DNA of 5,346 bases from Escherichia phage ECO95 1-6-1. Where the stretch lies: sequence record OR845275.1; one strand, 5' to 3'. The notes under the pieces are model-generated. The model saw nothing but the letters and a program-made list of their open reading frames with translations, had not been told where the DNA came from and did not search any database. This document shows positions 2,400 through 2,691 of this stretch, piece after piece. Positions within the stretch are counted from its first letter, which is position 1. Each line of letters starts with the position of its first letter. A program made the translations under genes and the position numbers.

Positions 2400-2486
2400 T
2401 ATGTTTTCCGAAAGGTTTTTATATTAACACTCCTACTCAACATCACCTATGATACGATCATAAAGCTGATACCCAAAACCATACAC
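2400..2486 (-). promoter_or_regulatory. AT-rich leader/promoter region of the R-M operon containing the palindrome TATGAT-acg-ATCATA (2448-2462)
   Basis: Intergenic stretch between the cer-like core and the R start codon. The perfect 6-bp-arm inverted repeat is seen directly. Promoter hexamers could not be assigned confidently by eye. Confidence 0.35.
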
Positions 2487-2691
2487 ATTTACCATAACGT
2501 CGCATTACGCGCACCGCTAAAACGCGTTCAGCGCGATCACGGCAGCAGACAGGTAAAAATGGCAACAAACCACCCGAAAAACTGCCGCGATCGCGCCTGA
2601 TAAATTTTAACCGCATGAATACCTATGCAACCAGATGGTACAGGCCACATTAACCCCTCTTAATCCACTGAAGCTGCCATTTTTCATGGTT
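2487..2691 (-). other. cer-like Xer multimer-resolution site: core 2487-2515 (minus strand reads GGTGCGCGTAA-TGCGACG-TTATGGTAAAT) plus ~180 bp accessory region with a candidate ARG box (2613-2629) and an inverted repeat (2531-2545 / 2582-2596)
   Basis: The XerD-arm TTATGGTAAAT matches the ColE1 cer XerD arm as I recall it. The XerC-arm GGTGCGCGTAA resembles the psi/dif/cer XerC arms. The central region is 6-8 bp depending on alignment. The ARG-box-like gcATGAATAccTATgCA lies ~100 bp on the XerC side, as in cer. Position between the mob genes and the cargo matches ColE1 organisation. Confidence 0.55.

Follow-up and report, generated by a model that had tools for sequence, protein, structure and literature searches.

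A probable ColE1-family cer site, with a Pcer-type promoter and an Rcd-like RNA, at a mosaic junction beside the Eco29kI-family restriction-modification operon of plasmid pC

The stretch of DNA analysed here (5,346 nucleotides; the window) covers one full circle of the Salmonella Enteritidis plasmid pC (NC_003457.1, 5269 bp), and its two ends overlap. Positions 1-77 are identical to positions 5270-5346 over all 77 nt, so that the circle is read slightly more than once. Plasmid pC was reportedly published in 2002. An Rfam search placed RNAI on the plus strand (393-498), and the primer RNAII therefore lies on the minus strand. The minus strand also carries a gene for a C5-cytosine DNA methyltransferase (M) of 382 amino acids (607-1755; Pfam DNA_methylase, E = 4.2e-59), a gene for an Eco29kI-family restriction endonuclease (R) of 214 amino acids (1755-2399; Pfam RE_Eco29kI, E = 1.8e-69), and mbeA (2692-4293, 533 amino acids), which has mbeB and mbeD nested in other frames and is followed by mbeC and rom. 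The stop codon of the R gene and the start codon of the M gene overlap by one base (TAATG), and the R protein is 99.1% identical in amino acids to that of pECO29. The interval between the R gene and mbeA, 2400-2691, has no feature in the gene table of the record. A Xer core, a putative ArgR box, a predicted Pcer and rcd, and the predicted promoters of the R gene are now mapped there to the base.

The 29-bp Xer core, GGTGCGCGTAA-TGCGACG-TTATGGTAAAT, lies on the minus strand at 2487-2515. It has the organization of ColE1-family cores (an 11-bp XerC arm, a centre of 6-8 bp and an 11-bp XerD arm), with the XerC arm GGTGCGCGTAA at 2515-2505, the 7-bp central region TGCGACG at 2504-2498, and the XerD arm TTATGGTAAAT at 2497-2487. 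The pattern GGTGCGNNNAA-N6-8-TTATGGTAAAT had this one match in the window, and none of 200 dinucleotide-preserving shuffles matched it. The core of the ColE1-like plasmid pOHT76-1_7 is GGTGCGTACAA-TTAAGGGA-TTATGGTAAAT. Its XerD arm is identical to that of pC, while the two plasmids differ in the XerC arm (GGTGCGTACAA versus GGTGCGCGTAA) and in the central region (8 bp, TTAAGGGA, versus 7 bp, TGCGACG). The unique match and the identical arm bear out the preliminary description of this DNA, which had placed a cer-type core with an exact XerD arm at 2487-2515.

The same 29-bp core was found in pECL18 and pRHB33-C12_6, beside unrelated cargo. Among 123 cer-like cores from a single scan of representative genomes, the central region was 6 bp long in 65, 7 bp in 37 and 8 bp in 21; at the cer-like sites of the genome scan, the central region TGCGACG was paired with four different XerC arms. 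Around the core, region 2300-2530 was 98.7-100% conserved in seven other pC-type plasmids of 5268-5270 bp from E. coli and Salmonella. On the same strand, 87 bp separate the XerD arm from the R start codon (2399), a distance close to the one of about 90 bp given at first.

On the XerC side, the cer accessory arm (2516-2691, minus strand) extends up to the mbeA stop codon (2692), in the direction that the preliminary description had given. By our alignment to the ColE1-type site of pOHT76-1_7, this arm is identical at 172 of 176 positions, in addition to the identical XerD arm. Its identity to pECL18 was 174/176 and that to pECO29 104/182 (57%). At least 5000 plasmid records matched the arm, in which ArgR and PepA are predicted to bind. 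A putative ArgR-box palindrome, TGCAT-AGGT-ATTCA, is at 2616-2629 (minus strand), with its start 114 nt upstream of the XerC arm, and is also present in pOHT76-1_7. The pattern TGNAT-N4-ATNCA occurred at an offset of 113-115 in 57 of 82 distinct cer-like sites. Because pC gave no match to the general ARG-box consensus at up to 3 mismatches, the box was assigned solely by homology to ColE1 cer and by this fixed spacing. The overall plan is that of the ColE1 family, with about 180 bp of accessory sequence and an ArgR box about 100 bp from the crossover.

The orientation of the site also follows the rule for cer, by which rcd and RNAII are transcribed in the same direction and Pcer runs from the ArgR side to XerCD (PMC2831885). 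In pC, cer reads from the ArgR box to XerCD on the minus strand, as does RNAII, and pOHT76-1_7 has the same orientation relative to RNAII. Directly 5′ of the XerC arm, at 2516-2535 (minus strand), pC has a short inverted repeat, GCTGAA...TTTAGC. Many relatives have an inverted repeat at this position with a different sequence, CTCAG...CTGAG, and it is absent from the consensus fold described below. Since it recurs, it may be another small conserved hairpin or a site for a protein.

A Pcer-type promoter, TTGCAT-N15-TAAAAT, is predicted at 2604-2630 on the minus strand (-35 at 2630-2625, -10 at 2609-2604). It overlaps the ArgR box, about 115 nt upstream of the core and about 200 nt upstream of the R ATG. 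A promoter scan limited to spacers of 16-18 bp misses it; in a rescan with spacers of 14-19 bp, TTGCAT and TAAAAT were the best hexamer pair with a 15-bp spacer. This spacer length is described in the literature as the hallmark of Pcer (PMC5935869). Both hexamers and the spacer length are the same in pOHT76-1_7, with one substitution within the spacer. We infer the hexamers of this sigma-70 promoter inside cer from the spacer length, published figure legends and covariation. The preliminary description was right about the direction of Pcer, which agrees with the published rule (PMC2831885) and with RNAI on the plus strand, and wrong in placing the promoter at the core.

Another candidate for Pcer, TGAACG-N15-TACAAT over the XerC arm of the ColE1-like plasmid, was rejected for four reasons. 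In pC, TACAAT is replaced by CGTAAT. Mutations in ColE1 Pcer have no effect on recombination, and Rcd is described as encoded within the resolution site (PMC4393325), being drawn inside a 166-bp site alignment (PMC5935869). Finally, a covarying stem-loop lies upstream of the core.

This stem-loop is the main part of the predicted Rcd RNA, whose 79-nt form would occupy 2519-2597 on the minus strand, beginning 7 nt downstream of the -10 element from which its start was set. A 17-bp stem (2597-2581 with 2546-2530) encloses a 15-nt loop sequence, CGGGTGGTTTGTTGC (2576-2562), that is nearly invariant in cer-like sites, and a last U-run (2522-2519) ends upstream of the XerC arm. The 79-nt form had a minimum free energy of -42.4 kcal/mol (z = -5.8), and none of 200 shuffles was as stable. 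In an alignment of 34 cer-like sites, 94.4% of the cells in the stem were paired, compared with 40-57% when the 3′ partner was slid, and 85 cells showed double changes against 31 in shuffles. The stem has many G-U pairs, which are mismatches on the other strand; therefore, the minus strand is the folded one. The 85 nt upstream of the XerC arm, which encode Rcd, are identical in pC and pOHT76-1_7.

Published descriptions of Rcd include a 'highly conserved 15-nt sequence' (PMC5935869), and the loop CGGGTGGTTTGTTGC fits it. Both a major stem-loop and a conserved 15-nt element, as expected of this short RNA, are present in the sequence of pC. The TANNNT pattern at the -10 position co-occurred with the loop motif (10/12 versus 3/45 sites; Fisher p = 4e-7 with the sites treated as unrelated, that is, with kinship ignored). 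Taken together, the promoter spacer, the fold, the covariation and this co-occurrence locate both Pcer and rcd in the interval from the ArgR box to the core. The -10 TANNNT and the loop motif were present in only about one fourth of the cer-like sites. From the sequence, pC rcd would be transcribed toward the core, as stated for Pcer (PMC2831885). In ColE1, Rcd is induced in plasmid multimers and inhibits growth via tryptophanase and indole (PMC4393325).

The length of Rcd is given in the literature as 70 nt or 90 nt. According to Sharpe et al. in 1999, the ColE1 primary transcript is reportedly 95 nt long and is trimmed to 79 and 70 nt. With these lengths, RNAs from 2597 would have their 3′ ends at about 2503, 2519 and 2528, none of them beyond the central region. 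In the Rfam search of the window, RNAI was the sole hit, and no family matched Rcd. Rcd thus seems to have no curated Rfam model, and would therefore be missed by routine annotation.

Comparison with related plasmids showed that the core lies at a boundary between two kinds of sequence. Window positions 2479-4030 were 97.3% identical to pECL18 and 2487-4191 were 97.0% identical to the ColE1-like plasmid. Positions 1-2562 were 98.3% identical to pECO29 (NC_001537.1), the type Eco29kI plasmid, and 4742-5267 just 88%. Plasmid pECO29 shares with pC the central region, the XerD arm, the 87-bp R leader, the R and M genes and the origin, with 721 of 732 positions identical from the XerD arm to the R stop codon. 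It differs in its accessory arm (57%), which has no TAAAAT -10 and no Rcd-like stem, and in having no mob genes. The XerC arm of pC is of the pECL18 type, unlike that of pECO29, which is of the ColE1 type, while the sequence from the central region onward is of the pECO29 type. The switch must therefore lie inside the central region and XerD arm, within about 20 bp. These are the parts of the core where Xer strand exchange happens.

Immediately downstream of the XerD arm, cer-bearing plasmids diverge according to their cargo (ColE1 exc2, Ecl18kI, EcoRI, an AAA ATPase, hypothetical proteins). The accessory arm is shared by thousands of records, whereas the 87-bp leader occurs in 17 plasmid records, solely with Eco29kI genes. 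All enterobacterial R genes of the Eco29kI family in the plasmid collection (at least 98.6% amino-acid identity) were on small ColE1-type plasmids. In pECO29, pSTEC17_190-b and the CPE35 plasmid, the same block, from the central region through the XerD arm and the 87-bp leader to the R-M genes, recurs behind other accessory arms. That the R-M operon starts so close to the XerD arm is best explained by a mosaic junction at the cer crossover.

The simplest reading of this juxtaposition, deduced from the comparison, is that heterologous cer sites recombined through Xer and that another exchange then took place in the conserved replication region. The second boundary lies in that region, which points to a homologous mechanism for the later exchange. 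In principle the first junction, too, could stem from homologous recombination inside the conserved core instead of catalysis by Xer. Xer-mediated shuffling at the core was proposed by the authors of a study on EcoRI plasmids for their promoter region, and the XerC/D-site modules of Acinetobacter, cited there, show exchange of cargo bounded by Xer sites (PMC7315355). As in these modules, the cargo boundary in pC is a Xer core and the cargo is found behind different backbones. They differ in that only one boundary in pC is a Xer core, the other being in the replication region. Plasmid pC would be a clean natural case of a cargo swap at a Xer crossover, with the same half-core and R-M operon found behind at least three different accessory arms.

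The R gene of the Eco29kI system has promoters of its own. In pECO29, two sigma-70 promoters of eco29kIR were mapped by primer extension, in vitro transcription, KMnO4 probing and mutagenesis of the -10 elements, with about 70% of the transcripts from Res_P2 and about 30% from Res_P1 (PMC3113576). Both are strong, both lie within a fragment from -72 to +34, and the R-M products had no effect on them; this fragment drove strong galK expression that depended solely on the two -10 elements, and mutation of both abolished expression (PMC3113576). The R gene itself contains the methylase promoter Met_P and two antisense promoters, and transcripts started at Met_P are about 10% of those started at Res_P1 and Res_P2 (PMC3113576).

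We placed these promoters on pC by arithmetic, using as anchors the Met_P start, located 227 bp before the M ATG, and the promoter fragments +408 to +472 and +469 to +682 (PMC3113576). The 87-bp promoter and leader region of eco29kIR would be 2400-2486 (minus strand). It is predicted to contain Res_P2, with a -35-like TTGGGT at 2476-2471, a -10 TATCAT at 2454-2449 and a start at about 2442, and Res_P1, with an extended -10 TGTTAATAT at 2429-2421 and a start at about 2414, both on the minus strand. Within the R gene, the antisense promoters would have the -10 elements TATAGT (2242-2247) and TATAAT (2221-2226) on the plus strand, and Met_P the -10 TATGAT (1992-1987) on the minus strand. All these positions agree with the published fragment limits, and the -10 elements assigned to Res_P2 and Res_P1 are identical in pC and pECO29. 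This places the Res promoters outside the core, at a predicted 11-66 bp past the XerD arm. By the same arithmetic, the fragment end at -72 corresponds to 2514 on pC, so that the published fragment would contain the core and not Pcer. On the plus strand, a promoter-like sequence, TTAACA-18-TATGAT (2424-2453, 10 of 12 matches), overlaps the predicted -10 elements of both Res promoters; it is directed into the XerD side of the core, and transcription from it would be antisense to Rcd. Hits of this kind in the region were at chance level, with 2 found and 1.0 expected.

We consider it likely that 2487-2691 (minus strand) is a ColE1-family cer site with Pcer and rcd, located at a mosaic junction, and that the R-M operon is expressed from its own promoters. 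By homology to ColE1, the 29-bp core would be occupied by XerC and XerD, the palindrome 114 nt upstream by ArgR, and the flanking accessory DNA by PepA. The two directly repeated sites of a plasmid dimer would synapse, and strand exchange led by XerC would yield monomers. The site of pC is predicted to support resolution, although its 7-bp centre, compared with 8 bp in ColE1 cer, counts against this. The Pcer-type promoter over the ArgR box would make Rcd, a short structured RNA that, as in ColE1, would delay the division of cells containing dimers. Plasmid pC itself would have arisen when a mob and accessory segment like those of ColE1 and pECL18 was joined to a second one, similar to pECO29, with the central region, XerD arm, R-M genes and origin, most likely by Xer recombination of two cer-like sites on different plasmids. 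The R-M genes would be transcribed from their own Res_P2 and Res_P1, together with Met_P and the antisense promoters inside the R gene, and Pcer would merely share their orientation.

Control of the nuclease gene by the cer promoter is thus unlikely. The preliminary description had proposed, as a speculation, that a Pcer-like promoter would fire into eco29kIR. Part of that reading holds, since the cer site is genuine, its intact Pcer-type promoter has the same orientation as the R gene, and the search between them gave no canonical terminator. In that reading, Pcer would be derepressed in dimers and read through the core into eco29kIR and eco29kIM, so that R-M expression would track the multimer state, which we regard as improbable. 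The start of Pcer, at about 2597, is 198 nt upstream of the R ATG (2399), both on the minus strand. No canonical, intrinsic terminator was predicted between 2597 and 2399, nor a hairpin with a U-run after the Rcd stem, and read-through is therefore possible; a transcript of 95 nt, as reported for ColE1, would reach about 2503, which would bring the polymerase into the core. On the other side, the conserved Rcd body and the last U-run end at 2519, before the core, and Rcd is reported as a discrete RNA of 70-90 nt. Read-through would also require a 198-nt leader across a core bound by XerCD. Moreover, the R gene need not depend on an upstream promoter, having two strong dedicated ones in pECO29 whose sequences are kept in pC and which greatly exceed Met_P in transcripts.

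Conservation also argues against this coupling, for which the preliminary description had set the proviso that the link be conserved. In the accessory arms of pECO29, pSTEC17_190-b and CPE35, GCTGAAAG stands in place of TAAAAT, and no exceptional fold was found in those of pECO29 and CPE35 (z = -1.9 and -0.3, respectively, versus -6.3 for pC). Three other types of accessory arm are therefore joined to the same R-M block without Pcer; the link from Pcer to the R gene does not accompany the block wherever it occurs and is restricted to the pC lineage. Nor is there a general bias in the orientation of genes next to cer. Among 63 distinct cer-like sites, the nearest ORF past the XerD arm was co-oriented in 28 and opposite in 35, by a rough count of mechanically called ORFs of at least 90 amino acids. 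The ColE1-like plasmid has exc2 downstream of its core on the opposite strand, where pC has the R-M operon on the same strand. Plasmid pECL18 of Enterobacter cloacae, which shares the mbe backbone as well as the core and accessory arm, diverges from pC immediately past the XerD arm, carries a different R-M system (Ecl18kI) and has its methylase gene convergent with cer.

The closest precedent is provided by the pMB1-type EcoRI plasmids, in which Pcer/Rcd, the core, the R gene and the M gene come in the same order and orientation (PMC7315355). The distance from the XerD arm to the start of the R gene is 63 bp in the EcoRI plasmid examined and 87 bp in pC. The regulatory scheme is likewise the same, with an R promoter, internal M promoters and antisense promoters. 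The EcoRI and Eco29kI proteins are unrelated, and the -35 of EcoRI PR is inside the cer central region whereas the Eco29kI promoters are outside the core. Mutation of xerC, xerD, argR or pepA left restriction by the EcoRI plasmids unchanged, and removal of Pcer together with the Xer sites raised the endonuclease only slightly (PMC7315355). These results weigh against read-through in pC as well, although the comparisons were made without separating the monomer and dimer states (PMC7315355). A specific course of events in dimers, in which XerCD leave one core, Pcer is derepressed and the polymerase runs through that core into the R-M genes, is in our estimate very improbable. If true, it would cause a transient, dimer-specific rise of R-M expression or shift the balance of sense and antisense transcription in the R gene, and would tie the dimer state to restriction or post-segregational killing in plasmids of the pC and EcoRI types.

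Just as improbable as control of R-M by read-through is a role for the Xer proteins themselves, in which XerCD at the core (about -45 to -73 relative to the predicted Res_P2 start) would repress or activate the R promoters and so tie R-M expression to Xer occupancy. The core does end 11 bp upstream of the -35-like hexamer of Res_P2, and in EcoRI plasmids the -35 of PR is even inside it. In spite of that position, EcoRI restriction did not change in xerC and xerD mutants. The -72 to +34 fragment of pECO29, which would span the core by our coordinates, drove strong expression that required only the two -10 elements, and the R-M products made no difference to it.

Least probable of all is that the site is an inactive relic, a hybrid core left by past recombination with a non-ColE1 XerC arm and a 7-bp spacer, as its differences from ColE1 cer in these two elements might suggest, given that the identical core recurs in pECL18 and pRHB33-C12_6, that 7-bp central regions are common in natural sites and TGCGACG occurs with four XerC arms, that 2300-2530 is highly conserved among the pC-type plasmids, and that the accessory arm is nearly identical to that of the ColE1-like plasmid.

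As a discovery, the cer site of pC matters little; cer, Pcer/Rcd and the layout from cer to R-M have already been described in ColE1 and the EcoRI plasmids.

A few further observations were made. Cer-type cores with ColE1-like accessory arms were found on small contigs assigned to Streptomyces, Collinsella, Chloroflexota, Corynebacterium and other non-enterobacterial assemblies and MAGs, probably through contamination with, or mis-binning of, ColE1-type plasmids. The record NZ_CP083894.1 (9459 bp) carries the cer core twice; its second R gene is truncated, and the annotation of the M gene is shortened. We rejected its interpretation as a Xer-made cointegrate: it is a head-to-tail repeat of about 1.8 units of pC, and represents either a real partial multimer or an assembly artefact. 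In the plasmid collection, the feature table for the pC record omits the mbeA ORF (2692-4293), and a 52-amino-acid 'replication initiation protein' annotated inside the pC origin looks spurious. The sequence CCGCGG, which we take to be the recognition sequence of Eco29kI and SacII, has no copy in the whole of pC (1-5269), which is not significant because about one copy is expected by chance. Just past the methylase stop codon (607) and before the replication region, an inverted repeat, CTCTATGG...CCATAGAG, at 571-597 may be a terminator or the other edge of the R-M cassette.
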